42,377 nt of DNA from an uncultured Candidatus Saccharibacteria bacterium (GCA_964357635.1 CAYHLZ010000003.1:1-42377); one strand, 5' to 3'. Shown: positions 5,759-31,272, counted from the first letter of the stretch. The notes: generated by a model not told the origin, from the sequence alone. Numbers and translations are program-made.

Positions 5759-5763
5759 TTTCT

Positions 5764-7691: not shown

Positions 7692-8135
7692 TCAGAAAAT
7701 ACCGAGAGTTCGACATGCTACCATATACATCTCCTGATGGCTATGGAACAGCGTGCGAGCCAAATCCTCGGCTCTAACCCAGTACGGCGCCGACAGTTCG
7801 TCGCCGTTGTCGTTCATGGGGGCCTCGCGAAGTTTGCCCCAGCAATCTTCGAAGTTCACCAGAAACCCATACTTGGTGTGCTCCGAGCTCACGTCTTTCT
7901 GCCAGATCCGTTCTGAGTTCAGGAAGATGAGTGACGATTCTTCCATGACCTCTCGGTCTCTCGTCGCGTCGACGGATTCATTCAGGTGCTCCTTGTTGGT
8001 GCCGCCGATGAACTTCGTCTGCAAATGGGTTTTCTTGCCCGTCCTCGGGTCGGTAGACTTGTAGTCAATCACGAGGAACTCCAGTTCTCCGTTCACACGG
8101 CGGTAAATCACGGTCCCTACGAAATGAGTGTGCAT
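7692..8135 (-). CDS. Divergent Nudix-like hydrolase in a high-GC single-gene cassette
   Basis: 147-aa ORF. It has a Nudix-box-like segment GGTNKEHLNESVDATRDREVMEESSL (7929-8006): E-x7-REVxEE is retained, the upstream G-x5-E spacing is off, and the box Gly is replaced by Ser. AGGAGG lies 6 nt before the ATG. Hand-counted G+C for 7741-7840 is 62/100. Confidence 0.5.
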   Translation of the reverse strand: MHTHFVGTVIYRRVNGELEFLVIDYKSTDPRTGKKTHLQTKFIGGTNKEHLNESVDATRDREVMEESSLIFLNSERIWQKDVSSEHTKYGFLVNFEDCWGKLREAPMNDNGDELSAPYWVRAEDLARTLFHSHQEMYMVACRTLGIF

Positions 8136-11800: not shown

Positions 11801-11977
11801 ATGGTCTTTATGCGCTTGGCAGACCTCACGGGCACAATAGAAGTAGCAATTTTCCCAAGAGTGCTTAATGAGTTCCGTAGTTTTGTACAACCAGAAACTT
11901 GCGTTGCCATTAAAGGCAGGGTTTCTAAGAGAAAGGACGAGACTTCATTCATTGCCGAAAAGATTAAGGCCTTGTAG
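8828..11977 (+). CDS. dnaE: DNA polymerase III alpha subunit
   Basis: N-terminal PHP domain (FVHLHTHSHYSLL), a polymerase core and a C-terminal OB fold, about 1050 aa in all. Start placed at ATG 8828; the track ORF begins at 8789. Confidence 0.95.
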   Translation: MSKFVHLHTHSHYSLLEALPKISDLVKKASLSNMDVLALTDSGNLYGAIEFYKECKKQDIKPIIGVDFYVASRTRLDKEARIDNERSRLVLLAENDNGYKNLLKLVTASYLEGFYYKPRIDKELIEKYHDGLIAILPALTKADLEEKTKYYKKIFGENNFFLEVTRHREIRGHEDSMKMRIEFARKENIPLVACHDVYYLELEDKPVRDTILSIQGHLLGGSDSGAFGEDGEDLSFISSEVAKDYFKDIPDALENTARIAERCNLELELGTWVFPNIETPEGVTPDELLKKIVYEGFKSRNSKKTKQEIERVEYELKIIKDKGYAKYFLVVYDLLDYAHKNGILTNVRGSAAGSMVTYLAGITDIHPLEYNLPFERFLNPDRPSPPDIDMDFADDRRDEVIEYVRKKYGEDKVAQIGTFGTMMARGAVRDVTRALGFSYTLGDQIAKLIPLGAQGFPMTLDRAMKENPELKKLYKEDSDAKRIIEMAQKIEGNARHISVHAAGVVISPTPLTDYTPLQYDTKGEKKVITQYDMHSVEEAGLLKFDFLGIRNLSIIAEALARIEKIEGKKIVMKDIPIDDKKTFEMLARGETEGTFQLNGDGMTRALMELKPNTIHDINVMVALYRPGPMDNIKEYIARKHGLSPISYLHPKMKGFLDTTYGVLVYQDDLLMTAIEVAGYSWGEVDKFRKAVGKKIPEEMRKQHIIFVEGCQKHGGMKKDKAEELWKLFEPFQGYGFNKAHAASYGYVAYITAYLKAHFPAIYMSAVLTAESGDVDKIGVIIKECKRMGIEVLPPSINESFSQFTVVNEKPYKIRFGLTTIKNFGQGVSSTITLERKQNGEYKDLADFLDRVKDKNLNKKSLESLIQCGALDEFGERGMLLANIDNLLEYHRERVRAPKNQDSLFAQMSDTSTLPSLRLIKAPEATQKNKLLWEKELLGLYISGHPLETYKDKLLSVKTSVDKLGDLKEGSEVVIAGIVESVRDVLTKKNERMVFMRLADLTGTIEVAIFPRVLNEFRSFVQPETCVAIKGRVSKRKDETSFIAEKIKAL

Positions 11978-11987
11978 GATAGAGCTT

Positions 11988-13223
11988 ATGAGTGAGAAAG
12001 AAGACAGAGATCATAAAAAATTAGGCAAAGAACTTGGACTCTTTCATATAGATGAAACGGTCGGTAAGGGTCTACCGATGCTACTTCCCAAGGGTGCCAC
12101 GATTAGGAGAGAGCTTGAACGCTTTATTGTGGATGAGGAGATAAAAAGAGGATACAACCATGTCTATACTCCTGATATTGCTAGACTAGAACTTTATAAA
12201 AAATCAGGTCACTATCCGCATTACAAAGATTCCATGTATGCGCCTATCGTTATTGATGACGATGAGTTCATGCTTCGTCCAATGACGTGTCCGCATCATT
12301 TTCAACTGTATTTATCAAAACCACATAGTTACCGAGAGTTGCCAGTACGTATTGCTGAAGTAGCTAAACTTTACCGCTATGAACAGTCTGGTGAATTAAT
12401 GGGTCTTCAGAGGGTGCGCAGTTTCTGCCTTTCTGATGCTCATATTATCTGTGTTTCAGAAGAACAGGCAGTAGAGGAAATGGGAGAGGCGCTAGACCTT
12501 ATTGAGTACGCCACTGGAGTGCTTGGCTTAAAACTTGGTGTGGATTATAGATACAGACTCTCACAAGGAGATAGAAAAAATAAAGAAAAGTATCCCGGCA
12601 ATCAAGCAGACTGGGAAAAGTCTGAAGACCTGCTTCGCAAACTTATGAAAAAGCGTGGAAACGACTTTGAAGAAGCAGTTGGTGAAGCATCTTTCTATGG
12701 TCCAAAAATAGATATCCAGATGAAAAATGCTAATGGGAAAGAGGATACGGCCTTTACTGTTCAGTATGACTTCATAATGCCAGAGCGATTTAATCTAAAT
12801 TATATTGGAGAAGATGGTAAGGAACACAGGGCCTTTGTCGTACATCGCTCATCCATTGGGGCTATTGAGCGCATTATGGCGTTTCTAATAGAAAAGTATG
12901 CAGGCGCCTTCCCTCTCTGGCTCTCACCTGTTCAAGTAAAAGTTTTGTCTATTGGAGAAAATCATGTGAAATATGCTAAAGAAGTTTTTGAAAAATTAAA
13001 GACAGAAAATATTCGAGCAGAACTTGATGACTCAAATGAGAGCTTGGGGAAGAAGGTTAGAAATGCCAAAACCGAGAAAGTTCCTTATGTGGCTGTAATT
13101 GGAGACAAAGAAATTTCGGAAAAAAAGGTTACTTTAGAAAGTAGAGATAAAGGTAAACTTGGCGAATTTGAAATTAGTAAGCTTATTTCTAAGCTTCTAG
13201 AAGAAACAAAGAGTAAGGCTTAA
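11988..13223 (+). CDS. thrS: Threonyl-tRNA synthetase, catalytic core plus anticodon-binding domain only
   Basis: It begins at [13 protein letters not shown], which is the start of the class II core. The Zn-site context MTCPHH and SDAHI and motif 3 [17 protein letters not shown] are present. Start at ATG 11988; the track ORF extension to 11868 overlaps dnaE. Confidence 0.9.
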
Positions 13224-14581
13224 CCCTTGGGCTTTAGAGTTGGGAAGAGGATAACTTCTTTAATGTTTTTAACATCCGTGAGAAGCATTACTAGGCGGTC
13301 AATACCGATACCAATACCACCGTTTGGTGGCATGCCGTACTCCATGGCTTCTAGATATTCTTGGTCAGACGGCGATATTTCTTCTTCGCCAACTTTTCCT
13401 TTCTTATCTTCTTCAACATAACGTTCTCTTTGGTCTATAGGGTTATTGAGTTCAGAAAAGGCATTTACTAGCTCTATTCCGCCTACTACAAGTTGGAAGC
13501 GGTCAAGAAGTTTTGGATTATCTTCTTTTCTTTTTGCAAAAGGATTTGATGATACTGGATAGTCAACGATAAATGTCGGCTGAATTAAACTTGGACGAAG
13601 CTCTTTTTTGTATTCTTCATCCTTCATCTTCAGAGGATACGATATTACTTCAAAATTTTTCTCCATATTAATCTCCTGTCCTTGGTACTCAAACTTCAAT
13701 TTGCCAAAAATTCCTTTTACTACAAATTTAAAGAGTTTTTCTATAAACTCTCGCTGGTTAGCTGCGTTTACATAAGCCTCGTTAGATTCAAGCATTGTAA
13801 ACTCAGGATTGTGAGATGTGTCTATGCCTTCATTTCTAAACCGCTTCCCTATTTCAAACACCTTATTCATGCCGCCAGCAAGCAGTTTCTTTAGGTAGAG
13901 TTCCTGTGCTACGGGGAGAAAAAAGTCCATGTCCAAGGCATTGTGATGTGTCTTAAATGGGAGAGCAGTGGCTCCACCAACTAAGGGTTGAAGATTGGGT
14001 AAATCTACTTCAACAAATCCGGCGTCAATATAAAACTGCCTTATAAGTTCAATAATCTTGGCACGAGTTACGAATCTAGCTTTCACTTCTGGGTTAGAAA
14101 GAAGATCTAAATAGCGTTTTCTAAATCTTTCTTCAATATCCTGAAGACCGTGCCATTTTTCTGGCAGAGGGAGAAGTGACTTTGAAAGTATTTTAATCTC
14201 CTCAACCAGAAGTGTTTTCTCGTTTTTCTTTGTCAGGAAAAAAGTGCCCTTAACTTCCACAAAATCTCCGATATCAAACGCGCTTTCAAATAGTTCAAAC
14301 GATTCAGTGGAAAGTGGTTCACCTTTCTTAAGAAGTGCTTGGAAACGCCCAGTACCATCATCAAAATCAAAAAAAATTATTTTTCCCTGTGCCCGTAAAG
14401 ACAAAATACGGCCGACCAAATGCTTGCTTTCGCCGTTACTAACCAAACTTTCAAAACGAATACCTGCTTCAGAACAAGTGACATCCTGACGCGCCGTTGT
14501 CGGATAAGGATTAATACCCTTCTTGATAAGAAGATTAAGTTTTCCGAGTCTTGTTTTCTTAATCTCTTCTAATGATGCCAT
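13220..14581 (-). CDS. lysS: Lysyl-tRNA synthetase, class II
   Basis: Motif 2 [18 protein letters not shown], motif 3 [15 protein letters not shown] and an N-terminal OB anticodon-binding domain. Confidence 0.9.
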
Positions 14582-17864: not shown

Positions 17865-18906
17865 TTTCGTTCTCTATAAGTACGGACCTAAAGTTATCTA
17901 AGTCCTCCAAGATTATACCAGCACCCCTTGCTACGGTCGTTAGCGGGTCTGCGGTAATAAATACCGGCACATTGATTTCACTTTCAATAAGTTCGGCAAG
18001 TCCTTTTACGAGCGCTCCACCACCGGAAAGATAGACTCCTCTGTGCATAATATCACTAAGAATTTCAGGTGGTGTCGATTCAAGTACTTCTTTAATCCCC
18101 TCTATCAAGCTTTCAACAGATTGAGAAATTGCCTCGCGAATATGAGTGTCTGTGATAATCATTTCCTTTGGTAAACCTGTCACCAAATCACGCCCCTTAA
18201 CCGTCATCTCAAGTGGGGCATGTGTCGGCAAAACAGAACCAATAGAAATCTTGACAGCCTCTGCAGTCTTTTCTCCTAGAAGGATTTTAAATTGATTACG
18301 AACATAAGAGACAATATCGGAGTTAAATTTATCTCCAGCAATACGCAAATTCTTTGATCTAACCACACCTCCAAGTGAGATTATCGCTATATCAGAAGTA
18401 CCACCGCCAATGTCTATTACCATATTGCCGACTGGTTCATGAATCGGTAAACGCATACCGATAGCGGCGGCCATGGGTTCCTCAACAATATGGACCTCTC
18501 CCGCACCGGCATTACGGGTAGCGTCACGGACAGCACGAATCTCTACGTTGGTGATACCCGAAGGTACGCCCACCACTACTCTTGGACTAAGAATTTTGTT
18601 TAAACCTCTGGTAGCCTTTCCTAAAAGATAGCTAATCATCTCTTCAGTAATCTCAAAGTCAGAAATCACGCCGTCAACTAGAGGTTTTATAGCAAGAATG
18701 TGGCTGGGGGTACGACCAAGCATGGCTCTGGCTTCTGTTCCGATAGCAACAACTTGTCCAGTCTTTTGGTTGACTGCGACAACAGACGGTTCGTTGATGA
18801 CAATGCCCTTGCCACGTAGGTAAACAAGCGTGTTTGCGGTACCTAAATCAATACCAATGTCATGGGAAAAGAACTCACGAAAATTTTTTTTGCCGAAAAG
18901 TTTCAT
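17842..18906 (-). CDS. mreB: Rod shape-determining protein MreB
   Basis: Actin-fold motifs IGIDLGTANTLVY and DIGGGTSDIAI. Confidence 0.95.
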   Translation of the reverse strand: MKLFGKKNFREFFSHDIGIDLGTANTLVYLRGKGIVINEPSVVAVNQKTGQVVAIGTEARAMLGRTPSHILAIKPLVDGVISDFEITEEMISYLLGKATRGLNKILSPRVVVGVPSGITNVEIRAVRDATRNAGAGEVHIVEEPMAAAIGMRLPIHEPVGNMVIDIGGGTSDIAIISLGGVVRSKNLRIAGDKFNSDIVSYVRNQFKILLGEKTAEAVKISIGSVLPTHAPLEMTVKGRDLVTGLPKEMIITDTHIREAISQSVESLIEGIKEVLESTPPEILSDIMHRGVYLSGGGALVKGLAELIESEINVPVFITADPLTTVARGAGIILEDLDNFRSVLIENESELPPKK

Positions 18907-20117
18907 TACTTTTTAAGTTCTTTCAAAAGACTGGCAAGCGTCATCTCTTTTGACTCTAGAGTAGAGCGGTCTTTGACCTCAAATTTAGAACCAGAAGTTT
19001 TATCGCCAACCATTATTCTTTTAGGAATACCAATTAGGTCAGAATCTGCAAACTTTTCTCCAGCGCGCACATCTCTGTCGTCATAAAGAACCTCAATGCC
19101 TTTTGATATAAGAGATTTATATAATTTGTCTCCTATCTTTCTACCCTTATCTGACAAGCTTAAAAGATGAACCTGAAACGGAGCAATCTCTTTGGGCCAG
19201 ACAATACCCTTATCATCAGAAAGAACCTCAACTACAGTGCCCATAAGACGCCCCAGCCCTATACCATAACTACCCATAAATACGTTGTGTTCTCTACCTT
19301 CTTTGTCTTTAAACTTAAGATATGGTTTGGAAAAATTGGTACCTAATGTAAATATATTGCCCACCTCTATGGCCTTTTTTTCAGTTATACCGTCTGGCGT
19401 CTCTACCTCTTTGTTCACTGCCTCTTTCTTTTTCTCGTCTTTTATAAAAATCTTGTCTTCTCCGGCAGAGGTCAATGTTTGGAATTCGTGAGAAAATTTT
19501 GAGAAACTTCCACCAGAAGCAAGGGTTAGATATGTCATATCACCAATACCAACACGATTGAAAATGTTTCTGTAGGTGTTTTTTACTTTTTCGTAAAACT
19601 TGTTGTGTTCGTCCTCAGTCGAGAAGAAAGAATACAAGTCTTTCATTAAGAATTCCCTAGTTCTCAAGATACCAGATTTTGCTCGCTCTTCGTTTCTAAA
19701 TTTGGTTTGGAACTGATATACAGAAAACGGCAGGTCTTGGTATGAAGAAACAAATTGTTCCAACATGTTGGTAATTGGCTCTTCGTGGGTGGTTGCAAGA
19801 CCTAATTCATTGCCAGATTTTAATTTGGTCTTAAACCAAGGCAACTTATCATCCGCCCATCTGTTTTGTTCTCTTTCCCAGAGCTCACGTCTCTGTAATG
19901 CAGACATAGAAATTTCTTGAGCTCCTAGAGCATTCATCTCCTCTCGGATTATGTCTTCTATCTTTTTTAGAACTCTAAGACCTAGTGGCAGATAATCATA
20001 TATTCCCGCCATTTCTTTATTGATAAAACCTGCCCTTATAAGGAGTTTGGCGTTCTTTGCCTCTTCGTCTTTGGGGGCTTCCCTTCTTGTTTTAGTGAAT
20101 AGGGTGCTCTGTCGCAT
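18906..20117 (-). CDS. proS: Prolyl-tRNA synthetase, bacterial-type N-terminus, no INS editing domain
   Basis: N-terminus MRQSTLFTKTRREAP, motif 2 FRNEERAKSGILRTREFLMKDLYSF, motif 3 GSYGIGLGRLMG and a C-terminal anticodon-binding domain. It is only 403 aa. Confidence 0.85.
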   Translation of the reverse strand: MRQSTLFTKTRREAPKDEEAKNAKLLIRAGFINKEMAGIYDYLPLGLRVLKKIEDIIREEMNALGAQEISMSALQRRELWEREQNRWADDKLPWFKTKLKSGNELGLATTHEEPITNMLEQFVSSYQDLPFSVYQFQTKFRNEERAKSGILRTREFLMKDLYSFFSTEDEHNKFYEKVKNTYRNIFNRVGIGDMTYLTLASGGSFSKFSHEFQTLTSAGEDKIFIKDEKKKEAVNKEVETPDGITEKKAIEVGNIFTLGTNFSKPYLKFKDKEGREHNVFMGSYGIGLGRLMGTVVEVLSDDKGIVWPKEIAPFQVHLLSLSDKGRKIGDKLYKSLISKGIEVLYDDRDVRAGEKFADSDLIGIPKRIMVGDKTSGSKFEVKDRSTLESKEMTLASLLKELKK

Positions 20118-20157
20118 CGCACCATTATAGAGAAATCAAAGCCAAAAACAAAGTGTA

Positions 20158-20174
20158 CCCCGCCTTGGCGGTGG
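20158..20174. repeat. GC-rich hairpin motif CCCCGCCTTGGCGGTGG, copy 1 (intergenic, 3' of rseP)
   Basis: Exact 17-mer shared with 22258-22274. A related copy is at 31256-31272. Confidence 0.6.
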
Positions 20175-20179
20175 CCTCT

Positions 20180-21262
20180 TTAGAGAATATTTTTAACGTC
20201 TTGAACTGTGATAAATATCATTAAAAGAATAAGTAAGGCAAAACCAACTGTGTTTACAACATTGAAAAGTCGCGCTGGAACGGGTTTGCGGGTAAGAGTT
20301 TCTATTCCGACAAAAAGTAGTCGTCCGCCATCAAGTGCTGGAAATGGCAAGAGATTAATAATTGATAGATTGATAGAGATAAGAGCGGTAAAGGTTAGAA
20401 GATAAGCAAAACCAAGTTCTCGGACATCACCCACCATACCAACAATTCCTACTGGACCCGTGACACCAGAGAGATCTGCTTTACCAGTTACCGCTTGAGA
20501 AATAAAATTTATAATTGCTTTGCCGGTTTGCACTGTAAGTTCTCCAGTAGTTTTTAAACCATGCCATATAGCTTTATGGGGCGCTAACTTAACCGTACCA
20601 ATTATGTCCATGGAGATGCCCACTGCAGGTCGGTCACTAATAATCCCTTCTTCTGGTAAAACATTGTTCTTGCTCACTTTTCCACCTCTTTCTATCTCAA
20701 AGATTAGTGGTGTCCCTGCTTTAGCTATAAACTCCGAAACCTCTTCTGGAGAGAGTCCCGAATAAACTCCATCTCTTGAAAGTGAAATGATACTGTCGCC
20801 TGACTTAAGGCCTGCATCTGCCGCTGGAGAGCCCGGCAAAACAGTGGTAATAACAGTATGGGCATCTTCCACGGGTAAAGAAAGGCTTGCAGGTGCAGGA
20901 AGTCCTGTCATAAATCCGAGCGAGAATAGAAGCCAAGCAAATACAAAGTTCCCTACTACTCCAGCCACCAATACAGAAGCCTGAATACCGCGATTTTTAG
21001 AAGCAAAGCTTTCTGGGTCGGCTCTAACTCCTGTCTCTTGGTCAGTGGGATTCTCGCCAAAAATCTTTACAAAGCCGCCAAAAGGAAGCCAGTTTAGAGT
21101 AAAGGGTGTACCCTTCCAGCTAAAGAGTCTTTTGGCGCGAGGAGGAAATCCAAGACCAAACTCATCCACCCTAATACTAAAATATCGGGCAACCAAAAAG
21201 TGTCCAAGTTCATGAACAATGATGAGCGCACTTAAAATTATTAAAAATATAATTATTGACAC
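20180..21262 (-). CDS. rseP: Site-2 (M50) zinc metalloprotease, RseP family
   Basis: HELGHF zinc motif at the N-terminus, an internal PDZ-like segment and a C-terminal NLLPFPALDGG motif. Confidence 0.9.
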   Translation of the reverse strand: MSIIIFLIILSALIIVHELGHFLVARYFSIRVDEFGLGFPPRAKRLFSWKGTPFTLNWLPFGGFVKIFGENPTDQETGVRADPESFASKNRGIQASVLVAGVVGNFVFAWLLFSLGFMTGLPAPASLSLPVEDAHTVITTVLPGSPAADAGLKSGDSIISLSRDGVYSGLSPEEVSEFIAKAGTPLIFEIERGGKVSKNNVLPEEGIISDRPAVGISMDIIGTVKLAPHKAIWHGLKTTGELTVQTGKAIINFISQAVTGKADLSGVTGPVGIVGMVGDVRELGFAYLLTFTALISINLSIINLLPFPALDGGRLLFVGIETLTRKPVPARLFNVVNTVGFALLILLMIFITVQDVKNIL

Positions 21263-23992: not shown

Positions 23993-24000
23993 TAGAAATG

Positions 24001-24028
24001 AAAAGACCAGCATCCGTAGATGCTGGTC
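24001..24028 (-). terminator. Rho-independent terminator at the left edge of the 24.0-27.3 kb island
   Basis: Perfect 10-bp stem GACCAGCATC / GATGCTGGTC with a CGTA loop, followed by TTTT on the minus strand. It may also stop the plus-strand PCD transcript. Confidence 0.7.
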
Positions 24029-24048
24029 CAGTGTTGACCCGTGGAGGA

Positions 24049-24567
24049 TCAGAATGGGTACTGCGCCCTCATCGTCGGACGAGGGTGTCGATAGAGCGGC
24101 TTGCGGTCACTCTTGTGGTTGATATTGGTGACGTTGAGTCCGCGAGACTTCTTGAGATGTGCGATGATCTCGTTCATTACCGCATGGTCTTTCTCCCAGC
24201 AGTCGACGAGACTCGGGCAGATGCCCACGAACGAGATCAGGGGAAACTTCAAAGTCGGGAAGTCGCGAGTCCACATGAGTGAAAACTCGCCAACCCACGA
24301 AGGAACTTCGCTGTCCCCTTGTTGGTATTCGAACCATAGGCGTCCTTTGAGTCCGGTACACTCCGAGTCAAAAAAGACGACCATCCCCGCTACTGGCTTC
24401 TCGATTTGAACGTCTCCCTTCAACCTCTTGTAAAGGCTTTCAGGCGACTTCAGGTTCCAGACACTGCAGTGCTTGTGCCTGGTTATCGAGGTGATTCCAT
24501 AGCTTCTGGGGCTTTCGAACCCATGGTCACCATGGAGTGTGAGTAATACCAGAGCGTTATTCTTCAT
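24049..24567 (-). CDS. Hypothetical protein (172 aa, no recognisable family)
   Basis: It is the longest frame in a stretch at about 50% GC. It has its own TTGACT-N17-TAAACT promoter, a GAAAGGG ribosome-binding site and a downstream terminator. Start placed at ATG 24567; the track ORF starts at a TTG at 24573. Confidence 0.6.
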   Translation of the reverse strand: MKNNALVLLTLHGDHGFESPRSYGITSITRHKHCSVWNLKSPESLYKRLKGDVQIEKPVAGMVVFFDSECTGLKGRLWFEYQQGDSEVPSWVGEFSLMWTRDFPTLKFPLISFVGICPSLVDCWEKDHAVMNEIIAHLKKSRGLNVTNINHKSDRKPLYRHPRPTMRAQYPF

Positions 24568-24622
24568 AGTCAACCCTTTCTTTGTTTCAAAACCGCCAAA
24601 AACAGCGGGTTAGTCCTTTGCA

Positions 24623-24651
24623 AGTTTACCTCTATCAGAGACAAAAGTCAA
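24623..24651 (-). promoter_or_regulatory. Sigma70-type promoter for the 24049-24567 gene
   Basis: The minus strand reads TTGACT (24646-24651) - N17 - TAAACT (24623-24628). Confidence 0.5.
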
Positions 24652-24681
24652 GTGAGTTTATGGTTAGTTTGGAAGTACCAC

Positions 24682-24710
24682 TTGCATTTTATAAACTCTT
24701 GTTGTATAAT
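24682..24710 (+). promoter_or_regulatory. Sigma70-type promoter for the SPFH-like gene
   Basis: TTGCAT (24682-24687) - N17 - TATAAT (24705-24710), divergent from the promoter at 24623-24651. Confidence 0.6.
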
Positions 24711-24763
24711 CTTGATTAGACAAGGTTTCAGCACCTTACATAGATTACTTCACTTCTTTTAGA

Positions 24764-24775
24764 GCGCCTAGGCGC
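24764..24775. promoter_or_regulatory. Perfect 12-bp palindrome GCGCCTAGGCGC abutting the SD of the SPFH-like gene
   Basis: It lies in the 5' UTR, directly 5' of GAGGAG (24776-24781) and 11 nt before the ATG at 24787. Confidence 0.4.
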
Positions 24776-24786
24776 GAGGAGTTCAC

Positions 24787-25866
24787 ATGTTTATCTTGAT
24801 TGGTTTCCTTCTGGCGACGGTCGTCGTCGTCGGACTGATCTTTTTCCTTCGTTGGTTTGCCGGCAAGGAAAATCCTACCATCATCACTTTTGTGCCTGCG
24901 CAGACACACGCCTTGGTTACGACCAAAGGCGTCTCATCTGACGAGGTTCGAAAAAACCCGAACAAAATAGAAGAACAAGGCAACGTCGTAGATGTTGTCC
25001 ATGCCATTCCGGGTAAGTGGTTCGACAAGTCAGCGAGTAACCCTTTTGACTGGTGTTACAAGAAGGAGGACGACGAACACAAGGAACCCAGAGGCCTCTT
25101 GTATCTTCTCTTTGGTATTGTTGTCGTCGGTTTCTTCCGTTATTTACGCCTCAACTTGGTGCGCACATTCCGATGGGGCAGGAAGAGCGCGGAAGAGAAA
25201 TACCACATGCAGGCCAAGGACTCACTTACCCGTTTCTCGTTCTTCTCTGGACAACATGACGTCCAGCTCCAGGATGTGGAAACATCTGATCTGCTTGGTG
25301 TCAATCTTCGGCTACAACTCCTTTACGAGGAGAAGTATCCCTTTAGGGTGAGACTGAAGACAGCGGATCCGTATGCCGTGATATCGGATAGGGCGTCCAA
25401 GTCTGCCATCGGCCTCATCGGCGCGCATGGTGCGAAGGCTATCGTCCTGGACAAGAAACTCCAAGATGAGCTGGCGCTGAGGGTTAAAGAAGTGATCGGC
25501 AAGGAGGTTGAGGACGATCTTGGCGTTGAGATCACCACAGCGACGCTCGCTGATGTTGATTACAACGAGGAAACGAAAGAGCTCCTCGAAAAGAAAGCCA
25601 AGGCAGAGTTTGAAGCCGAAGCGAACCTCATTACGGCTAAGAACGAGGCGGCACAGGCAATTGAACGCGCTGATGGGCAGATGAAAGCTCAGAAGCTTCT
25701 CAACGAAGGTGCCGCTGATCGAGTCACGACGGTGATCAAGCCGATTGTCGCGATGGGTGAACTTGGTGTAGAGGTACGCAAAGCCGAGGCATACGAAAAC
25801 AATCAGACCATGACGACACTCGTTATCGGCCAAGGCGCTTCGCCTGTAATTCCTATCGGGAAGTAA
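24787..25866 (+). CDS. SPFH/Band-7 (stomatin/prohibitin)-like membrane protein
   Basis: N-terminal TM (FILIGFLLATVVVVGLIFFL), a second hydrophobic segment (LLYLLFGIVVVGFF), an SPFH-like core (...LGVEITTATLADVDYNEE) and an A/E/K-rich coiled coil (KAKAEFEAEANLITAKNEAAQAIERADGQ). GAGGAG ribosome-binding site. Confidence 0.55.
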   Translation: MFILIGFLLATVVVVGLIFFLRWFAGKENPTIITFVPAQTHALVTTKGVSSDEVRKNPNKIEEQGNVVDVVHAIPGKWFDKSASNPFDWCYKKEDDEHKEPRGLLYLLFGIVVVGFFRYLRLNLVRTFRWGRKSAEEKYHMQAKDSLTRFSFFSGQHDVQLQDVETSDLLGVNLRLQLLYEEKYPFRVRLKTADPYAVISDRASKSAIGLIGAHGAKAIVLDKKLQDELALRVKEVIGKEVEDDLGVEITTATLADVDYNEETKELLEKKAKAEFEAEANLITAKNEAAQAIERADGQMKAQKLLNEGAADRVTTVIKPIVAMGELGVEVRKAEAYENNQTMTTLVIGQGASPVIPIGK

Positions 25867-25886
25867 TCGCGCACTATGCGCACACG

Positions 25887-25925
25887 TGCCACCGTTAGCC
25901 TAAAGGCTTTCGGTGGCATTTTTTT
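25887..25925 (+). terminator. Rho-independent terminator after the SPFH-like gene
   Basis: Stem TGCCACCG (25887-25894) pairs with CGGTGGCA (25911-25918), followed by T7. Confidence 0.75.
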
Positions 25926-25927
25926 AT

Positions 25928-25957
25928 TTGACAAATACAACTTAAATATGATATAAT
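25928..25957 (+). promoter_or_regulatory. Consensus sigma70-type promoter for the lytic transglycosylase gene
   Basis: TTGACA (25928-25933) - N18 - TATAAT (25952-25957). A GAGGTG ribosome-binding site lies 4 nt before the ATG at 26005. Confidence 0.6.
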
Positions 25958-26004
25958 GTTAGTAGGCTTAAATTAACGGATTGAACATTCACATGAGGTG
26001 ATTT

Positions 26005-27246
26005 ATGGAAAACGAAGAACCTGATCAGACTGATCAGTTCGCCGTTGAAGATATCGAAAGAGGTCTTGAAGCAGAAAAAGCCAAAGAAGAAGTGCCAATC
26101 GAGCTGAGGCTGGTCGAGGAAGAAGTCCCTGTCCAGAACAAGACAGAAATGGATACAGTTCTGGAAACGGATACTGCGCCGGTGGTTGAGGCAAAAACCG
26201 AAGCAACCGCTGGAAAAGTTCCGAACGGAAAGCTCAATAAGGTATGGAGATGGACGAAATCCAACTTCTGGATTCTTTTCTGGGCGACGATCGGACTCTC
26301 TGCCTTTATCCTTCTAGGCTTCTTGCTCAGCGGAGTCGTTGAAAAGACGGTCGGAGTCGACGGCGCTCTCCACCAGAACTTTTGGTGGTGGACGCTCGGC
26401 ATCGTGGTAGTGATCGTCGTCATCTGGCTTCTCCTGCGAAGCTCCAAGGCAAAACAATACCCTGATGGGACGGCCAAGCCTCTGAACCCAGAGATAGTTG
26501 CAGTGGCAGTTTCTTCGCCACCACAACCGGCCAGGAGAATGGGTACGAGTTGGCCCGTGAGCGCTCTTGCCATCTTTGGTGGCGTAATCCTCTTCGGTTT
26601 ACTGTTGGGAGTTCTCATGGATGATGGTCCGAATCTCTCAAAGCCTGTCGCTTCGGCAATGGTAACAGAGACGACTGAGAACGGTTGGAATCTACCAACC
26701 GAAATCGTTCTCTCTATAATCGCTGATTGCGAAAGTGGAGACAAATGCCAGCCCGGCACTGGACGCCAGTTCAACAAGGACGGTAGTGTTGTCACAAACA
26801 AGAATAAAGATGGCACCATTGACATCGGTAAGTGGCAGATCAACTCTCGGCACGAAGTCGAGGCGAAGGCAAACAATATCGACCTCACAACTGAGGAAGG
26901 TAATCAAGCTTTTACTATGAGACTCTACAAACGTGAAGGGCTCAACCCATGGAAGGCGTCGCGGAGTGGTTGGGAACCCTTGCTCCTTTCTTACGGAAGT
27001 GGGGTGAGCGTGGCCAACACATATGTAGCACGAGCCGGAGAGCCGGTCGTGATTAGCATACCGCCGGATTATCGCCGAAAAATGGTGGGTGAACTTCCCA
27101 CTGTTGGTCTCTACTCCGAGAAATACCTTGATGCAGACAGAAACCTCATCGAGACAATCGGGGTCGTACCTCCGGCAACGGAAGCGATAATGCATATTGC
27201 CATCACCAAGTGCCGTTCGCAGGCTGATTGTGCAAGTACAAGGTAG
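26005..27246 (+). CDS. Membrane-anchored lysozyme-like / lytic transglycosylase protein
   Basis: Acidic N-terminus and three predicted TM segments. These are followed by IIADCESGDKCQPG...DGTIDIGKWQINSRHEVEAKANNIDL...NQAFTMRLYKREGLNPW, which matches the catalytic-Glu 'CES' plus 'D.G..QIN' pattern of SLT/Rpf-like muramidases. The C-terminal ~150 aa are unassigned. Confidence 0.55.
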   Translation: MENEEPDQTDQFAVEDIERGLEAEKAKEEVPIELRLVEEEVPVQNKTEMDTVLETDTAPVVEAKTEATAGKVPNGKLNKVWRWTKSNFWILFWATIGLSAFILLGFLLSGVVEKTVGVDGALHQNFWWWTLGIVVVIVVIWLLLRSSKAKQYPDGTAKPLNPEIVAVAVSSPPQPARRMGTSWPVSALAIFGGVILFGLLLGVLMDDGPNLSKPVASAMVTETTENGWNLPTEIVLSIIADCESGDKCQPGTGRQFNKDGSVVTNKNKDGTIDIGKWQINSRHEVEAKANNIDLTTEEGNQAFTMRLYKREGLNPWKASRSGWEPLLLSYGSGVSVANTYVARAGEPVVISIPPDYRRKMVGELPTVGLYSEKYLDADRNLIETIGVVPPATEAIMHIAITKCRSQADCASTR

Positions 27247-27262
27247 TACCTGCAAACGCAAA

Positions 27263-27297
27263 GGCGTCCCGATCGCGAGATCGCGGACGCCTTTTTT
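27263..27297 (+). terminator. Strong rho-independent terminator between the convergent lytic transglycosylase gene and the pilin-like array
   Basis: GGCGTCCCGATC-GCGA-GATCGCGGACGCC forms a 12-bp stem with one bulge and a GNRA loop, followed by T6. Confidence 0.8.
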
Positions 27298-27326
27298 AAT
27301 GCGAGAAAAAGTTTTCTTACTCTGCG

Positions 27327-27683
27327 TTAGACACCAGGAATTGGAACTGACGGAACTTGCTCAAGAGATTCACCTTGTTCAATACCAAAGGCATCCCCGA
27401 TAAAGCCAACGAGTCCCCAAACAGAAACCATCACAAAGAGAGCAATGACACCCCAAACCATGGTTTTCTTAGCATCTGACTTTGACTCCTCATTGCCTTG
27501 AGCAAAGATGAACTTAACGAGACCCCAGAAGAATGCTAGAAGAGCGATACCCACCACTACAGGTAGAAGAGTGCCTACAAGACCGCCAATGGAAGTGGCG
27601 AAGGTTTCCAAGTTGCCAAACTCTTCTTGAGCAAAAGCAAATGAAGGAAGAAATGCTAAGAGTGTGAGAGTTGTTTTTTTCAT
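27327..27683 (-). CDS. VirB2/TrbC-like two-TM small protein, family 1, with signal peptide (P1)
   Basis: 118 aa. Signal peptide ...FAFA|QEE, TM1 ending FFWGLVKFIF, loop AQGNEESKSDAKK, TM2 WGVIALFVMVSVWG and a Pro-rich tail. Confidence 0.6.
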   Translation of the reverse strand: MKKTTLTLLAFLPSFAFAQEEFGNLETFATSIGGLVGTLLPVVVGIALLAFFWGLVKFIFAQGNEESKSDAKKTMVWGVIALFVMVSVWGLVGFIGDAFGIEQGESLEQVPSVPIPGV

Positions 27684-27692
27684 TTGTTTACT

Positions 27693-27959
27693 TTAGATGT
27701 TGAGATAGTCGGGAGGGTCAATACCGAAGGTGCTAAGAACCAAACGAATCAAACTAAAGGCAGAAATCATGATAAACATGCCGAAGAGTCCCCAAAAGAT
27801 TTTCTTTTTACCAGTTTCGCGCTTGTCATCGGATGTCTCGGAGAAAATGAACTGAAAAATTCCCCAGAAGAAGACTAAGGCGGCTATGGCGAAAGCAAGT
27901 ACAATCAGAGGGTTAAGAATGTAACGGTTAACCCCGTTGAGAAACTCGGATATGTCCAT
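27693..27959 (-). CDS. VirB2/TrbC-like two-TM small protein, family 1, leaderless (P2)
   Basis: 88 aa with no signal peptide. TM1 ending FFWGIFQFIF, a charged loop, and TM2 WGLFGMFIMISAFS. Confidence 0.55.
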   Translation of the reverse strand: MDISEFLNGVNRYILNPLIVLAFAIAALVFFWGIFQFIFSETSDDKRETGKKKIFWGLFGMFIMISAFSLIRLVLSTFGIDPPDYLNI

Positions 27960-27974
27960 CAGACGTTCTAGAAA

Positions 27975-28319
27975 CTAAATTCCAGGAACTGTTGGAGTGT
28001 CGGTAAGTTGGTCCTGGTTAATACCAAGTGCGCTACCAATGAATTCTACGAGACCCCAGACAGAAACCATCACGAAGAGGGCAATAAGACCCCAGAGCAT
28101 GATTTTCTTAGCTTCTGCCTTAGATTCCTCATTGCCTTGGGCAAAGATGAACTTAACAAGTCCCCAGAAGAAGACTAGAAGGGCGATAGCAACGACTATA
28201 GGTAGAGCTAGAGCTACCAATTCGCCGATATTTTCAACGAATGTGTCTATGTTGCCAAGGTCTTGAGCAAAGGCGAAAGCTGGAGCAAATGCCAAGAGGG
28301 CAAGGATAACTTTTTTCAT
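27975..28319 (-). CDS. VirB2/TrbC-like two-TM small protein, family 1, with signal peptide (P3)
   Basis: 114 aa and roughly 70% identical to P1 by eye. Signal peptide ...FAFA|QD, FFWGLVKFIFAQGNEESK and WGLIALFVMVSVWG. Confidence 0.6.
   Translation of the reverse strand: MKKVILALLAFAPAFAFAQDLGNIDTFVENIGELVALALPIVVAIALLVFFWGLVKFIFAQGNEESKAEAKKIMLWGLIALFVMVSVWGLVEFIGSALGINQDQLTDTPTVPGI
28054..28094. repeat. 41-nt exact repeat, copy 1 (inside P3)
   Basis: ccccagacagaaaccatcacgaagagggcaataagacccca is identical to 28541-28581. It encodes the WGLIALFVMVSVWG helix. Confidence 0.9.
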
Positions 28320-28434
28320 TTATTGTAACTTTTGAGGGCCTTTAAACGAGCCCTTTGTTATTTGTAATATACCTAAACGGTACCTCTATATCCTATCCCA
28401 GTGGGATATGAGGCGCAATCAAGTTATCCCCTGC

Positions 28435-28818
28435 CTACTGAAAGTCTCCAGAACGGGGCGGAATGTTGCCACTACCACCATTATCGGTAGGTGTGGGAGA
28501 CACCCCACCAAGAAGAGCATCTTGGAAGAACTCTATTATCCCCCAGACAGAAACCATCACGAAGAGGGCAATAAGACCCCACTTCATCAATCTCTTACCG
28601 TCATCTACCGCTTTCTCTCCGTCCCCGCCTAGGCGGAAGACAAATTTAACGAGACCCCAAAAGAAGACTAGCAGGGCCACGCCGACAAGTATTGCAATTA
28701 AGGGATTAATAAGACCCCCCGTTGCGGTGATAAGTTCTCCTAGACCCGTGAGTTGAGCAGAAGCTACTAGGGGTAATAGAGCGAGTGCGGGTATAAGAAG
28801 TTTTATATATTTTTTCAT
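28435..28818 (-). CDS. VirB2/TrbC-like two-TM small protein, family 1, with signal peptide (P4)
   Basis: 127 aa. Signal peptide ...VASA|QL, FFWGLVKFVF, loop RLGGDGEKAVDDGKR, WGLIALFVMVSVWG and a Gly/Pro-rich tail. Confidence 0.6.
   Translation of the reverse strand: MKKYIKLLIPALALLPLVASAQLTGLGELITATGGLINPLIAILVGVALLVFFWGLVKFVFRLGGDGEKAVDDGKRLMKWGLIALFVMVSVWGIIEFFQDALLGGVSPTPTDNGGSGNIPPRSGDFQ
28541..28581. repeat. 41-nt exact repeat, copy 2 (inside P4)
   Basis: Identical to 28054-28094. The flanking codons differ. Confidence 0.9.
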
Positions 28819-28823
28819 AGTTA

Positions 28824-29111
28824 TTAATTACCTTGTGGTAAAAGAGGCCAGCCGGAGCCGAACCCGGGAATTTCGTTACTGGCAAAGGCAAGGATAGACA
28901 TTAATGAGATTACTATAAAGAGCGCGATGAGACCCCAGACCATAAGTTTCTTTCCGTCTGAAATGGCCTTCTCATCTCCACCAACGCGGAAAATAAACTT
29001 AACCAAACCCCAAACAAAAACCAGAACAGAAAGACCAAAAATTACCGGCAAGGCCAGAGTTATCAAATCAACGATGACCATTACTACAGAGTTAAAATCG
29101 GTTGGTGCCAT
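28824..29111 (-). CDS. VirB2/TrbC-like two-TM small protein, family 1, leaderless (P5)
   Basis: 95 aa from ATG 29111 (the ORF extends to a TTG at 29126). It has VFVWGLVKFIF, loop RVGGDEKAISDGKK and WGLIALFIVISLMS. Its start lies 2 nt after the P6 stop. Confidence 0.55.
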   Translation of the reverse strand: MAPTDFNSVVMVIVDLITLALPVIFGLSVLVFVWGLVKFIFRVGGDEKAISDGKKLMVWGLIALFIVISLMSILAFASNEIPGFGSGWPLLPQGN

Positions 29112-29113
29112 GT

Positions 29114-29545
29114 TTATATTGGGCAAGATGGACCGCCTAAGGCTTCGATGGTCGTACAGACAACGTTAGCGATAACCCATGCCCCAAGAAGAACGGCAGT
29201 GCCAACGGAAGTGTAAAGAAGTGATTTGTGCGCTGTTTTAAGTTTCGTCTCATTGCCCGCTGCTGTGACATAAAGAAAGCCGGAGAAAACAAAGGCAAGC
29301 ACGGCGATGACCCCGCCGATGGGCAAGACGACATCGTTAATAATTGTTCTCACAAGACCAAAGAGGGATCTTTGGGCGCCAAAAGGATTATCGAGGGTAA
29401 CATTGATAGATGGGTTACCGACACCAGTGGGCACACAGTTTGGAGGAGAACCGGCTTGTCCGGGTGGACACTGGGCTAAAACTGAGGGAATACCGACAGC
29501 AAAGAAAAAAGAGAGAGATAAAAGAGTTATGGGTAATTTTTTCAT
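29114..29545 (-). CDS. VirB2/TrbC-like two-TM small protein, family 2, Cys-containing (P6)
   Basis: 143 aa from ATG 29545. Signal peptide ...VLA|Q, CPPGQAGSPPNC, TM1 ...FSGFLYVTAAGNETKLK loop, TM2 and a C-terminal C...C pair. Confidence 0.55.
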   Translation of the reverse strand: MKKLPITLLSLSFFFAVGIPSVLAQCPPGQAGSPPNCVPTGVGNPSINVTLDNPFGAQRSLFGLVRTIINDVVLPIGGVIAVLAFVFSGFLYVTAAGNETKLKTAHKSLLYTSVGTAVLLGAWVIANVVCTTIEALGGPSCPI

Positions 29546-29549
29546 ATTT

Positions 29550-29921
29550 TTATTGTGGTGGACCAAGAAGTGAGGTGCCAGTAGTTAGGCTAGTAATAGT
29601 GTAAACCAGAAGCCATGCTGCGAGTATCCACAGGTAACCTATTAAAACTTTAGTAAAAATTCCTTTTGCTTGAGTTTTCCTAGACTCACTGCCACCAGAT
29701 GTCATAAGAAGAAATCCAGAGTAAATGAAAGCGAGAACCGCAACGAAGGTTGAAAGAAGGACTAGAGCAGTTATAACATTCTGAGCAAGCTCAATAAGGT
29801 GGTCAAAGGTGCATTCTTCTGTCACGCCATCGCAGACTATTAGGTCAAAGCCTTGAGCAGAAACACTCTGCGCCAGAAAACTAAAGAGAAGAATGGGAAT
29901 TAATAATAAAAACTTATTCAT
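29550..29921 (-). CDS. VirB2/TrbC-like two-TM small protein, family 2, Cys-containing (P7)
   Basis: 123 aa. Signal peptide ...SVSA|QG, CDGVTEEC, TM1 ...YSGFLLMTSGGSESRK loop, and TM2. Its ATG shares one nucleotide with the stop of the upstream SBP-like gene (TAATG). Confidence 0.6.
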   Translation of the reverse strand: MNKFLLLIPILLFSFLAQSVSAQGFDLIVCDGVTEECTFDHLIELAQNVITALVLLSTFVAVLAFIYSGFLLMTSGGSESRKTQAKGIFTKVLIGYLWILAAWLLVYTITSLTTGTSLLGPPQ

Positions 29922-31210
29922 TATTGTTTTATTAGCGCATCAACCTCTTCACTAATTTCGTTAATTGCCTCTCCTGACCTTGCGCGACCGCTTGTAACTG
30001 ACTCTATGGCGTTTTTAAAGACTGTGTCGGTCTCTTCGGCATCTGGGTCAAGAAAACCTTTTGACTGAAGTGCTGCATCGTAGAAGGTGGAAAAGATGGC
30101 ATCTGTAGGCTTTGAAACAAGAAGGTCTCTACGGGCTGGTGGCAAGGCAAGGTTCTTGGAGAGGAAGGCGGATGATTCTTTTGAGGTAAGAGTAGTTGCC
30201 ACGGTAAAGGCAACTGCGGGGTTTCTGGAGCCTCGAGATATTGCAACACCTTTTATGTACCCAAAGGTTGTAACTCTACTTGAGACTCTTGATTGCGGAA
30301 CAGGCGCCACAGAAAAGTTAAGGGTTGGGTTCTTGTTCTTAAGTATAGAAAACTCTGAAGCAAAACCAAGGTAGTAGGCAGAGTCCCCGCTCGTAAAGTG
30401 CGTTTGGGCATCAACGAGAGAGCGGTTCCAGCTATAAAACACTTTTGTCGGATTTGAAAACTGGGTGTAGAAGTCTAGAGCCGCAACCCCTGGTGAAATC
30501 GGCAGACTGTTGGGGTTAGTGGCAATTTGTGATTGGAGCTTGCCACTAACTTTAGCCGTGATTGGCGTACCCGCTTGGAGAAAGAGTAGAGAAAGAATGT
30601 CCTTGGCATGAGGGATATTGCGTGCCTCTCCTAGAGCTATAACTGAAGAAAACAAATTTCCGGCAGTATCCTTTTTTGAAAGGTTGGCAGCAGAGGCATA
30701 TATCTCATCCCAATACGTAATGGGCCCTGCATGCCCGGCAGACGAGAGGAGGTCTCTGTTGTAATAGAGAACCATCGGGTCTATGGATATCGGTAGGGCA
30801 AAGATGCCACCAGCATCTAGAAAGAGTTCGGCCTCCTCAACGAAAATTGTTTTAAAGTCACGTTCAGTAAAACTTTCAAACGGGATGGCCAAAAGTTTTG
30901 GTTTATTTTTCCAGAGTCGGTCTTGAGTGAGCAAAATAAGGTCTGGACCTTGTCCCCGAGCAAGTGCTTCGGTAAATTCAGTATCAAGTGCATCGGCAGA
31001 TTTTTCCACATAGCTTACAGTTAATGTATCGTCTTGAGTAAGTGTTGGGGTATTGAGAAGAAGATTAAAATAATGTGATGGCACATCTCCCCAGACAACT
31101 ATATTGACATCGTTATTACCACCTCCACCACGATAAAGAGAGAAGACAGCTACTCCAATGACAACAAAGGCCCCGAAAACTGCCAAGAGAATAATCTGAA
31201 ACTTAGACAT
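29921..31210 (-). CDS. Membrane-anchored extracellular solute-binding-protein (family 1)-like protein
   Basis: N-terminal TM anchor (ILLAVFGAFVVIGVAVF) followed by an SBP_bac_1-like body, including ALPISIDPMVLYYNRDLLSSAG. No permease or ATPase gene is adjacent. Confidence 0.6.
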   Translation of the reverse strand: MSKFQIILLAVFGAFVVIGVAVFSLYRGGGGNNDVNIVVWGDVPSHYFNLLLNTPTLTQDDTLTVSYVEKSADALDTEFTEALARGQGPDLILLTQDRLWKNKPKLLAIPFESFTERDFKTIFVEEAELFLDAGGIFALPISIDPMVLYYNRDLLSSAGHAGPITYWDEIYASAANLSKKDTAGNLFSSVIALGEARNIPHAKDILSLLFLQAGTPITAKVSGKLQSQIATNPNSLPISPGVAALDFYTQFSNPTKVFYSWNRSLVDAQTHFTSGDSAYYLGFASEFSILKNKNPTLNFSVAPVPQSRVSSRVTTFGYIKGVAISRGSRNPAVAFTVATTLTSKESSAFLSKNLALPPARRDLLVSKPTDAIFSTFYDAALQSKGFLDPDAEETDTVFKNAIESVTSGRARSGEAINEISEEVDALIKQ

Positions 31211-31255
31211 ATCTATAGTGTATCAAAGAGGGAAAAACTCTCAACGAATAGCTTG

Positions 31256-31272
31256 CCCCGCCGTGGCGTGGG
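31256..31272. repeat. GC-rich hairpin motif, variant copy 3 (CCCCGCCGTGGCGTGGG, intergenic 3' of gyrA)
   Basis: It shares AGCTTGCCCCGCC-N-TGGCG with the copy at 22252-22274. Confidence 0.5.

Follow-up and report, generated by a model that had tools for sequence, protein, structure and literature searches.

In Southlakia epibionticum (Saccharimonadia), an essential type IV secretion system (T4SS) locus encodes VirB4, VirB6, PrgI and a lysozyme-like protein (PMC10633639, PMC12857230), and in this organism, the sole Patescibacterium to have been tested genetically, the T4SS is essential for epibiotic growth. The locus includes a tandem array of six sequence-divergent pilins of the family PF18895 (SEML1_0014-0019; Wang et al. 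2023, PMC10633639), which is divergent from VirB4, VirB6 and PrgI and is accompanied by no gene for a solute-binding protein (SBP) or an SPFH scaffold. Across the Patescibacteria, VirB4 has been reported in 2,417 of 3,035 assemblies, in Paceibacteria typically near dnaA/dnaN, together with arrays of 2-11 VirB2 pilins that commonly lie distant from virB4; pilins are near it in just 1,135 of 1,948 assemblies (Quinonero-Coronel et al. 2025, PMC12102498). The present analysis concerns a stretch of 42,377 nucleotides (CAYHLZ010000003.1:1-42377, the whole of which is referred to as the window), in which eleven open reading frames (ORFs) within positions 24049-31210 include an array of VirB2-like pilin genes led by an SBP gene, and a facing pair, g2 and g3, that encodes an SPFH protein and a lysozyme-like protein.

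The locus resembles that of Southlakia in that both hold a tandem array of six sequence-divergent PF18895 pilins in a monoderm Patescibacterium, the window having one further pilin gene, and in that a lysozyme-like protein accompanies the system. It differs in that the array is led by a coupled SBP, stands beside gyrA and, apart from one protein resembling a type IV coupling protein (T4CP) in a single relative, is without T4SS core genes, both within the window and in the flanks examined in 80 relatives. The pilin families, PF18895 and PF04956, are those of the published survey, which mentions no SBP, no SPFH gene and no linkage to gyrA (PMC12102498). Tandem VirB2-like arrays in Patescibacteria, and an essential six-pilin array in Saccharibacteria, are thus already known; what is new, and unmentioned in the patescibacterial T4SS literature searched, is the coupling to an SBP, the detached site linked to gyrA, the strict positional orthology of the pilins and a fast-evolving SPFH/lysozyme partner with anomalous G+C at third codon positions (GC3). 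On balance, it is probable that the SBP and pilin genes are a patescibacterial T4SS pilin set detached from its virB4/virB6 core, and that g2 and g3 provide a VirB1-type muramidase confined by an SPFH scaffold.

The SBP-pilin operon beside gyrA

The window derives from a groundwater metagenome (0.1-µm fraction), and the organism names attached to its SBP matches place its lineage in Candidatus Zambryskibacteria (Paceibacteria/Parcubacteria). It was compared with 80 species-level Paceibacteria genomes, one per species, collected by an SBP-seeded scan; loci are labelled L0xx, with L076 denoting a complete Campbellbacteria genome, L079 Ca. Paceibacterota SO_2017_GW1_169 and L091 the window's own contig. 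A reading made earlier from the sequence only had listed the eleven genes as one for an SPFH protein, one for a lysozyme-like protein with three transmembrane (TM) segments, one for a TM-anchored SBP, seven for VirB2-like pilins and one unassigned, and had noted that g2 and g3 (plus strand) are transcribed convergently with the pilin and SBP genes (minus strand). The ORFs, Pfam matches and TM predictions bear out both the inventory and the layout.

The operon opens with the SBP gene (29921..31210, minus strand), whose 429-residue product is a family-1, MalE-like protein matching SBP_bac_8 (PF13416; E 1e-16, 61 bits against a threshold of 27) and SBP_bac_1 (PF01547; E 1e-14, 56 bits against 26), with a single N-terminal TM anchor (residues 6-24) and MalE-type proteins as its closest solved structures. 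The stop codon of this gene overlaps the ATG of the first pilin gene, p7, in the junction TAATG, and the coupling of SBP to pilin genes extends across the clade: in nearly all 80 loci (SBP identities of 37-69%) the SBP gene comes directly after gyrA, and the pilin run starts no more than a few bases from the end of the SBP gene. No permease or ATPase of the ATP-binding cassette (ABC) type that could be cognate to the SBP was seen in the flanks examined around the 80 loci; the window has ABC genes only at 14-1557, where they form an ABC-2 exporter pair, and the multi-TM neighbours of the locus in L076 are FtsW/RodA and MurG. A terminator-like hairpin after gyrA overlaps a promoter-like site before the SBP gene (31217..31263, minus strand), and these pattern matches suggest that the SBP and pilin genes form a transcription unit of their own.

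The surroundings of the SBP gene vary among relatives in several ways. In 55 of the 80 loci (for example L046, 3466-3993) a gene for a 175-residue S-adenosylmethionine-dependent methyltransferase (Methyltransf_31/11/25) comes directly before the SBP gene in the same orientation, often overlapping the SBP start; neither the window nor its closest relatives have it. IS200-like Y1 transposase genes are found at several points of the otherwise rigid block (L025, 423-1085; L002, 19303-19980), including the gyrA-SBP spacer of L019, L026 and L028. In L083 the GyrA ORF (2509-6261, plus strand) is about 1,250 residues long as against the usual 811 or so, and an intein or other insertion is possible.

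All seven small minus-strand genes between 27327 and 29921 match PF18895 (T4SS_pilin), six of them above the gathering score of 26.6 with 32-50 bits, and each product has two TM helices. An AxA-type signal peptide is predicted in five of the seven and in neither p2 nor p5. Named in order along the window, p1 (27327..27683; 42.4 bits) has a signal peptide ahead of its two TM helices, and is followed by p2 (27693..27959; 32.4 bits), p3 (27975..28319; 49.8 bits) and p4 (28435..28818; 34 bits). The next gene, p5 (28824..29126), scores just under the gathering score at 24.6 bits, and matches a hidden Markov model of the array at E 1.9e-34. The operon-proximal genes are p6 (29114..29566; 34.6 bits), with a Cys-containing N-terminal extension, and p7 (29550..29921; 38.2 bits), which also matches TrbC (PF04956) at E 1e-4; TrbC matches are sub-threshold throughout the array, as are NCBIfam matches to the "Mbov_0395 pilin-like" family of integrative and conjugative elements (ICEs) of Mollicutes.

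Counted from the SBP, positions 1 to 6 of the array are occupied in the window by p7, p6, p5, p4, p3 and p2. Exactly six pilin genes are present in 54 of the 80 loci, and in these the best match in the window is determined by position: position 1 corresponds to p7 in 53 of the 54 and position 2 to p6 in all 54, positions 3 and 4 best match p5 and p4 in most, and position 5 matches p3 or p1, and position 6 p2, in every one. Because this orthology is specific to position across 54 loci, the six different subunits of the array form a set that is both old and fixed. The seventh gene of the window, p1, shares 81% nucleotide identity with p3 over 192 nucleotides, and p1 and p3 have the same best match, one shared gene in L001 and one in L002; on these comparisons p1 is a lineage-specific local duplicate of p3. 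Where the survey reads patescibacterial arrays as variable paralogues that possibly aid host-range adaptation (PMC12102498), the six paralogues described here are positionally fixed, and orthology of this strictness points to a heteromeric structure and not to antigenic variation. By analogy with the VirB2-type family, the pilins would be expected to polymerise into an extracellular pilus.

Two observations on the array stand apart. A gap of about 115 nucleotides separates positions 4 and 5 (28320-28434, minus strand) and is also there in most relatives examined; its RNA folds somewhat better than shuffled sequences (z = -2.1), and the gap may be an internal regulatory site that divides the array into SBP plus p7-p4 and p3-p1. 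In L079 the first pilin is an 873-residue fusion (11252-13873, plus strand) of PF18895 with Ig-like, fn3 and cadherin-like domains, He_PIG and Big_9 being among the families matched.

The earlier reading had further proposed an envelope apparatus without an ATPase. For the window itself the observation stands, as a Pfam scan of the long ORFs found no VirB4, VirB11, VirD4, VirB6/8/9/10, PilB or PilC, and no other ATPase or channel gene of a T4SS or type IV pilus; the other long ORFs are all housekeeping genes (DnaE, SMC, MreBC, PBP2, RseP, RRF, GyrA, FtsA, FtsZ and others). The window lies at one end of a 70-kb contig, and the 10 kb past its other end encode RbfA, IF-2, ClpB and an N_methyl pilin-like protein and hold no T4SS gene. 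Nor is VirB4 or VirB6 found among the flanking genes annotated across the 80 loci. Nevertheless, the lack of an ATPase is probably an artefact of the window: Table S1 of the survey lists VirB4 in 22 of the 25 Zambryskibacteria assemblies shown, and also for five carriers of the module described here (L014, L027, L059, L069 and L076) (PMC12102498). Furthermore, in L079 a 552-residue T4CP/VirD4-like ATPase, with TrwB_AAD_bind, T4SS-DNA_transf, TraG-D_C and DUF87 above their thresholds, directly follows the array; a sequence comparison with solved structures brought up no close relative of this protein, and the other loci lack a homologue. Given the VirB4 of module-carrying relatives and the VirD4-like ATPase of L079, the pilins are best read as a detached part of a known T4SS, and a T4SS elsewhere that accounts for the pilin genes is the second circumstance under which the earlier reading had declared itself refuted.

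Beside these findings, the segment of L079 after the array (18128-21248, plus strand) encodes not only the T4CP/VirD4-like ATPase but also a surface protein with LTD and PKD domains. The N_methyl gene on the window's own contig (L091, 12585-13106) lies about 2 kb past the window start, near RbfA/IF-2, and encodes a 173-residue protein of the type IV pilin type; genes of type IV pilin character are thus present in the organism beyond the window as well.

The association of SBPs with pilin-like proteins or transfer systems is not without parallel. The Sulfolobus bindosome combines sugar-binding proteins with small pilin-like Bas proteins, which are type IV pilins with class III signal peptides, and has its own ATPase; PrgZ and TraC are pheromone-binding SBPs of enterococcal conjugative plasmids, PrgZ being of the OppA family (family 5). 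The likeness lies in an SBP that is genetically tied to pilin-like proteins or to a transfer system of the MPF-FATA type. In contrast to the bindosome and PrgZ, the SBP described here is MalE-like (family 1) and its partners are of the VirB2 type.

These parallels raise the possibility that the SBP and the six two-TM proteins form a self-contained complex independent of any T4SS, either a bindosome-like display or a permease split into six hairpins (12 TM helices), in which the VirB2-like fold would serve as an anchor. The fixed six-member paralogue group with positional orthology, which is not a variable array, would fit such a complex, as would its translational coupling to an SBP that is an orphan in the flanks examined, the lack of VirB4 and VirB6 among the ORFs annotated around it and the L079 fusion, in which a pilin domain appears to anchor an ectodomain. 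However, this is distinctly improbable, for several reasons: the genes are homologous to VirB2/TrbC and to the pilin-like proteins of Mollicutes ICEs, the same number of pilins, six, is found inside the essential T4SS locus of Southlakia, a T4CP-like ATPase adjoins the array in L079 and VirB4 is present in carriers of the module. The complex is considered a less likely rival than the independent SPFH/partner pair discussed below.

If the pilins do belong to a detached T4SS, the operon would be the pilin set of an MPF-FATA-like system parked beside gyrA, with its core elsewhere, in Paceibacteria typically near dnaA. Sec would insert six distinct VirB2-like subunits, encoded in fixed order, into the membrane, and VirB4 machinery encoded at a distance would build from them a heteromeric pilus or stalk, with which the co-translated, membrane-anchored MalE-type SBP may ride or on which it may dock. 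As a receptor for glycans or solutes, the SBP could then serve to recognise the host or to capture host-derived compounds. An SBP coupled to a conserved set of six pilins in dozens of Paceibacteria species offers a testable handle on what the T4SS transports or touches.

The facing SPFH and lysozyme-like pair

Operons in which an SPFH scaffold is paired with a partner are familiar from HflK/C-FtsH, QmcA-YbbJ and stomatin-NfeD. The g2-g3 pair is like them in that a Band_7 gene lies immediately upstream of a gene for a multi-TM partner, often with overlapping frames, and is unlike SPFH-NfeD operons in that the partner is without NfeD and, in a subset of genomes, bears a lysozyme-like ectodomain. 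The first gene, g2 (24787..25866, plus strand), encodes a membrane-anchored SPFH/Band-7 protein that matches PF01145 at E 4.5e-9 (37 bits, gathering score 23.6), with residues 3-21 forming an N-terminal TM segment and residues 104-122 another hydrophobic one; a divergent homologue in L076 matches Band_7 with 44 bits. A word-indexed search of 5.8 billion proteins returned 18 direct homologues, all within the clade. When a narrower g2 alignment was used as search seed it led to a single metagenome locus, and a diverse alignment held no stretch conserved enough to serve. A phage origin of g2 was considered and rejected, a weak PHROG "lipoprotein" match at its C-terminus being all that was found.

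The second gene, g3 (26005..27246, plus strand), encodes a protein with three TM segments (residues 90-108, 126-144 and 185-203) and an external lysozyme-like domain at residues ~225-330 (nucleotides 26677-26994); in the full-length model a disordered, acidic N-terminus leads into three long helices, and a beta-sandwich (residues ~337-402) lies at the C-terminus. The protein falls below the thresholds of curated families, scoring 15.1 bits against 27 for SLT_3 (PF18896) and E 0.02 for IagB (NF011856, cut-off 208 bits), and its homologue in L058 matches SLT (PF01464) at E 0.0065. Just 12 homologues of g3 were found in the same 5.8 billion proteins, and among them E243-S244, G275-x-W-Q-I-N and D293/T296/E297/G299/N300 are invariant, while D273 is conserved in at least 90%. 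A profile of the domain gave 97 matches to PDB sequences, of which the 60 listed are lysozymes and the muramidase EtgA of a type III secretion system (best E 0.002); in the HMMER alignment D273 is paired with D52 of hen lysozyme, and E243 of the E-S motif is the equivalent of E35. In a confident AlphaFold (AF2) model of residues 225-344 (pLDDT 88, pTM 0.81), helix 232-243 ends C-terminally in E243 and is followed by strands 264-274; the top 50 Foldseek matches of this model in the PDB are all C-type lysozymes, at TM-scores of at most 0.48 and E 0.1-0.5. The full-length model finds no lysozyme in the PDB by Foldseek, its matches being Ig-like noise.

Taken together, the invariant motif, the profile matches and the fold matches of the domain model argue for a lysozyme-like fold. 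The catalytic Glu-Ser motif and the G-x-x-Q-I-N motif are shared with VirB1, IagB/IpgF, EtgA and C-type lysozymes, and the beta-hairpin Asp of EtgA and hen lysozyme is also present. Unlike the muramidases of secretion systems, g3 is anchored by three TM segments and has, in addition, a cytoplasmic tail of acidic character and a beta-sandwich at its C-terminus; it lies below the Pfam SLT and SLT_3 thresholds, has an SPFH gene as partner and diverges at a very high rate. The protein is therefore predicted to be a membrane-anchored lysozyme/EtgA-like enzyme, either a hydrolase or a lytic transglycosylase, with probable muralytic activity. It had earlier been called a lytic transglycosylase; a better description is C-type-lysozyme/EtgA-like, since equivalents of the hen lysozyme Glu and Asp are both there.

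With respect to expression, the g2 and g3 frames overlap by 4 nucleotides in many genomes. In the window they are instead separated by a 138-nucleotide spacer that contains a perfect sigma-70-type promoter match (25928..25957, plus strand; TTGACA, 18 nucleotides, TATAAT, with TG; 12/12), and on this consensus match g3 may have gained a promoter of its own in the window. In the favoured scheme, the SPFH scaffold would be co-expressed with g3 as a second unit and its ring would confine the enzyme, whose external domain would cut peptidoglycan locally, in the cell's own wall or that of the host, as a VirB1-type protein does.

The pair is retained beside the array across the clade, iterative searches having placed g2-like SPFH genes and g3-like multi-TM genes convergent to the array in most loci. 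In the 51 informative loci, whose sequence continues for 3.5 kb or more past the array, an SPFH start was sought within 3.5 kb, and a convergent SPFH gene was found in 43, usually preceded by a multi-TM protein. Of the 38 loci that have lost LOG/FKBP synteny downstream, 33 keep the SPFH gene, and in three genomes (L064, L074 and L079) the pair lies between the pilin genes themselves, so the island is not, as the earlier reading had allowed, a chance neighbour missing from relatives. Every homologue of g3 with a readable context shows one order: LOG/PCD, g1-like, g2-like, g3-like, convergent pilins. Neither NfeD nor any other Pfam family was detected in g3 or in ten proteins encoded at the g3 position.

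Sequence divergence in the pair is fast and partly incongruent. In two close relatives (GyrA 85-87% and MreB 87-88% identical) the SBP is 67-69% and the pilins 50-77% identical; g2 is 61% identical in one and 31% in the other, and g3 34% and 32%. Between genomes whose GyrA is 86% identical, g3 identity is 32-37%. The pair also stands out in composition. The G+C content of g1-g3 is 0.51-0.52 against a window mean of 0.42, in agreement with the contrast noted earlier between the two halves, and GC3 is 0.54-0.67 (0.59 for g2) against 0.38. The earlier suggestion that this difference may mark an insertion is not supported, as the offset recurs in nearly all genomes that have the pair: the mean G+C excess over the respective locus is 6.8 points for g2 (~55 genomes) and 8.3 points for g3 (~40 genomes), and GC3 of g2/g3 is often 0.6-0.7 where that of gyrA is 0.22-0.35. 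The offset is confined to coding sequence, the intergenic DNA of the island having the genome's own low G+C (0.38-0.39). The GC3 excess is a conserved property of the pair and not a sign of recent insertion; possible causes are biased gene conversion at a recombination-prone locus, repeated import of alleles and selection at the codon level.

It could nevertheless be argued that the G+C-rich segment at 24.0-27.3 kb is a recent foreign island (the remains of a prophage, for instance, or a lysis cassette) which came to lie beside the array by chance. Its composition (G+C ~0.51 against 0.42) and high GC3, the few direct homologues of g3 and g2 and the weak PHROG match of g2 are the points in its favour. 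Against it stand the recurrence of the same offset in nearly all related genomes, the low G+C of the intergenic DNA within the segment, the presence of all checked direct homologues in the same syntenic slot and the retention of the pair where synteny breaks. A mobile-element origin was looked for and rejected, no att-like or other flanking direct repeats, tRNA or integrase being found, and a defence system was likewise rejected, with no PADLOC match. A recent foreign island is essentially excluded.

A link between the two halves

The proposal that both halves serve one T4SS faces several difficulties. The halves are convergent, hence never co-transcribed, and they differ sharply in evolutionary rate and in GC3. 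Gene order in the clade is generally conserved, gyrA, MBL, S1, Pth and LepB also staying linked, and because regional synteny is so high, conserved adjacency is weak proof of shared function. The SPFH gene was undetected after the array in 8 of the 51 informative loci, a lysozyme-like domain is detectable in only ~20 loci, and many g3-position proteins are short, with TM segments but no domain that can be recognised. Each lysozyme match of g3 is weak taken singly, at E 0.002 or worse for the profile and 0.1-0.5 for the fold. The Southlakia T4SS locus, as noted, offers no precedent for an SBP or SPFH gene. Finally, no T4SS core gene occurs in the ~52 kb inspected of this genome's 70-kb contig, and VirB4 is attributed to the lineage from its relatives and the published table, not from this genome.

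What joins the halves is their conserved neighbourhood and nothing besides, and an independent SPFH/partner pair is consequently a serious rival. According to this alternative, two unrelated modules lie side by side on a slowly rearranging chromosome: the T4SS SBP-pilin operon, and an autonomous g2-g3 pair engaged, after the manner of SPFH/NfeD operons, in membrane quality control or cell-wall remodelling. Several of the difficulties listed above speak for it directly, namely the convergence of the units, their unequal GC3, the equally tight linkage of the housekeeping genes on the gyrA side and the loci without an SPFH gene. To these may be added the identities of g3 (32-34%) and g2 (31-61%) against 67-69% for the SBP at equal phylogenetic distance, and the cell-wall genes FtsW/RodA and MurG near the locus in L076. 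However, this alternative is rather unlikely, since the pair keeps its place beside the array where synteny downstream is broken (33 of 38 loci), is embedded in the array in three genomes and shows no NfeD domain in ten g3-position proteins, and since a lysozyme beside T4SS genes has a precedent in Southlakia. A T4SS pilin set accompanied by an SPFH-confined muramidase is thus still preferred; should the two halves prove unrelated, the idea of an ATPase-less apparatus would still stand corrected.

A bolder form of the preferred reading may also be envisaged, in which this Paceibacteria clade has rebuilt its T4SS pilus as a fixed six-subunit "bindosome-pilus" bearing or docking the MalE-type SBP, which would contact the host and recognise or harvest glycans or solutes. 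The hyper-variable, recombination-prone, SPFH-caged lysozyme would be its host-specific wall-opening partner, and the GC3 excess and divergence of g2/g3 would reflect a diversifying exchange that sets host range. This is speculative and, as a whole, rather doubtful. The fast-evolving, GC3-anomalous SPFH/lysozyme pair is in any case a candidate determinant of host specificity.

Gene g1 and other features of the window

The remaining gene of the eleven, g1 (24049..24573, minus strand), is divergent from g2 and encodes a cytoplasmic protein of no recognised family. The sequence-only reading was right in giving it neither a family nor a membrane segment, and erred in its length, which is 174 residues and not 172. 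No match to g1 was found in Pfam, NCBIfam, PADLOC or PHROG, no TM segment is predicted, and a profile of the family found nothing in the PDB or Pfam. Its GC3 is 0.67. The family has eight members, with GTG/TTG starts in the window, L001 and L002, and its homologues at L001 8092-8619 and L002 7744-8259 (both minus strand) are uncalled as genes in the public assemblies. When the G+C-rich gap at 23993-24786 is aligned with relatives, conservation is seen at the protein level on the minus strand, and for this reason g1 is taken to be coding. A non-coding RNA in the same gap was considered and rejected, Rfam giving nothing at gathering score and an sbrA match at E 0.16 being at chance level. The gene is outside the conserved module and is part of a variable stretch between g2 and LOG/PCD.

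Between the convergent ends of g3 and p1, a gap of 80 nucleotides contains a pattern match to a terminator-like hairpin followed by a T-run (27273..27296, plus strand). Elsewhere in the window, a 147-residue ORF at 7692-8135 (minus strand), called as a gene in the public contig and matching no Pfam family, is the strongest compositional outlier, with a G+C content of 0.53 and a GC3 of 0.71 against a gene mean of 0.38, and so represents a second GC3-rich orphan gene besides g1-g3.

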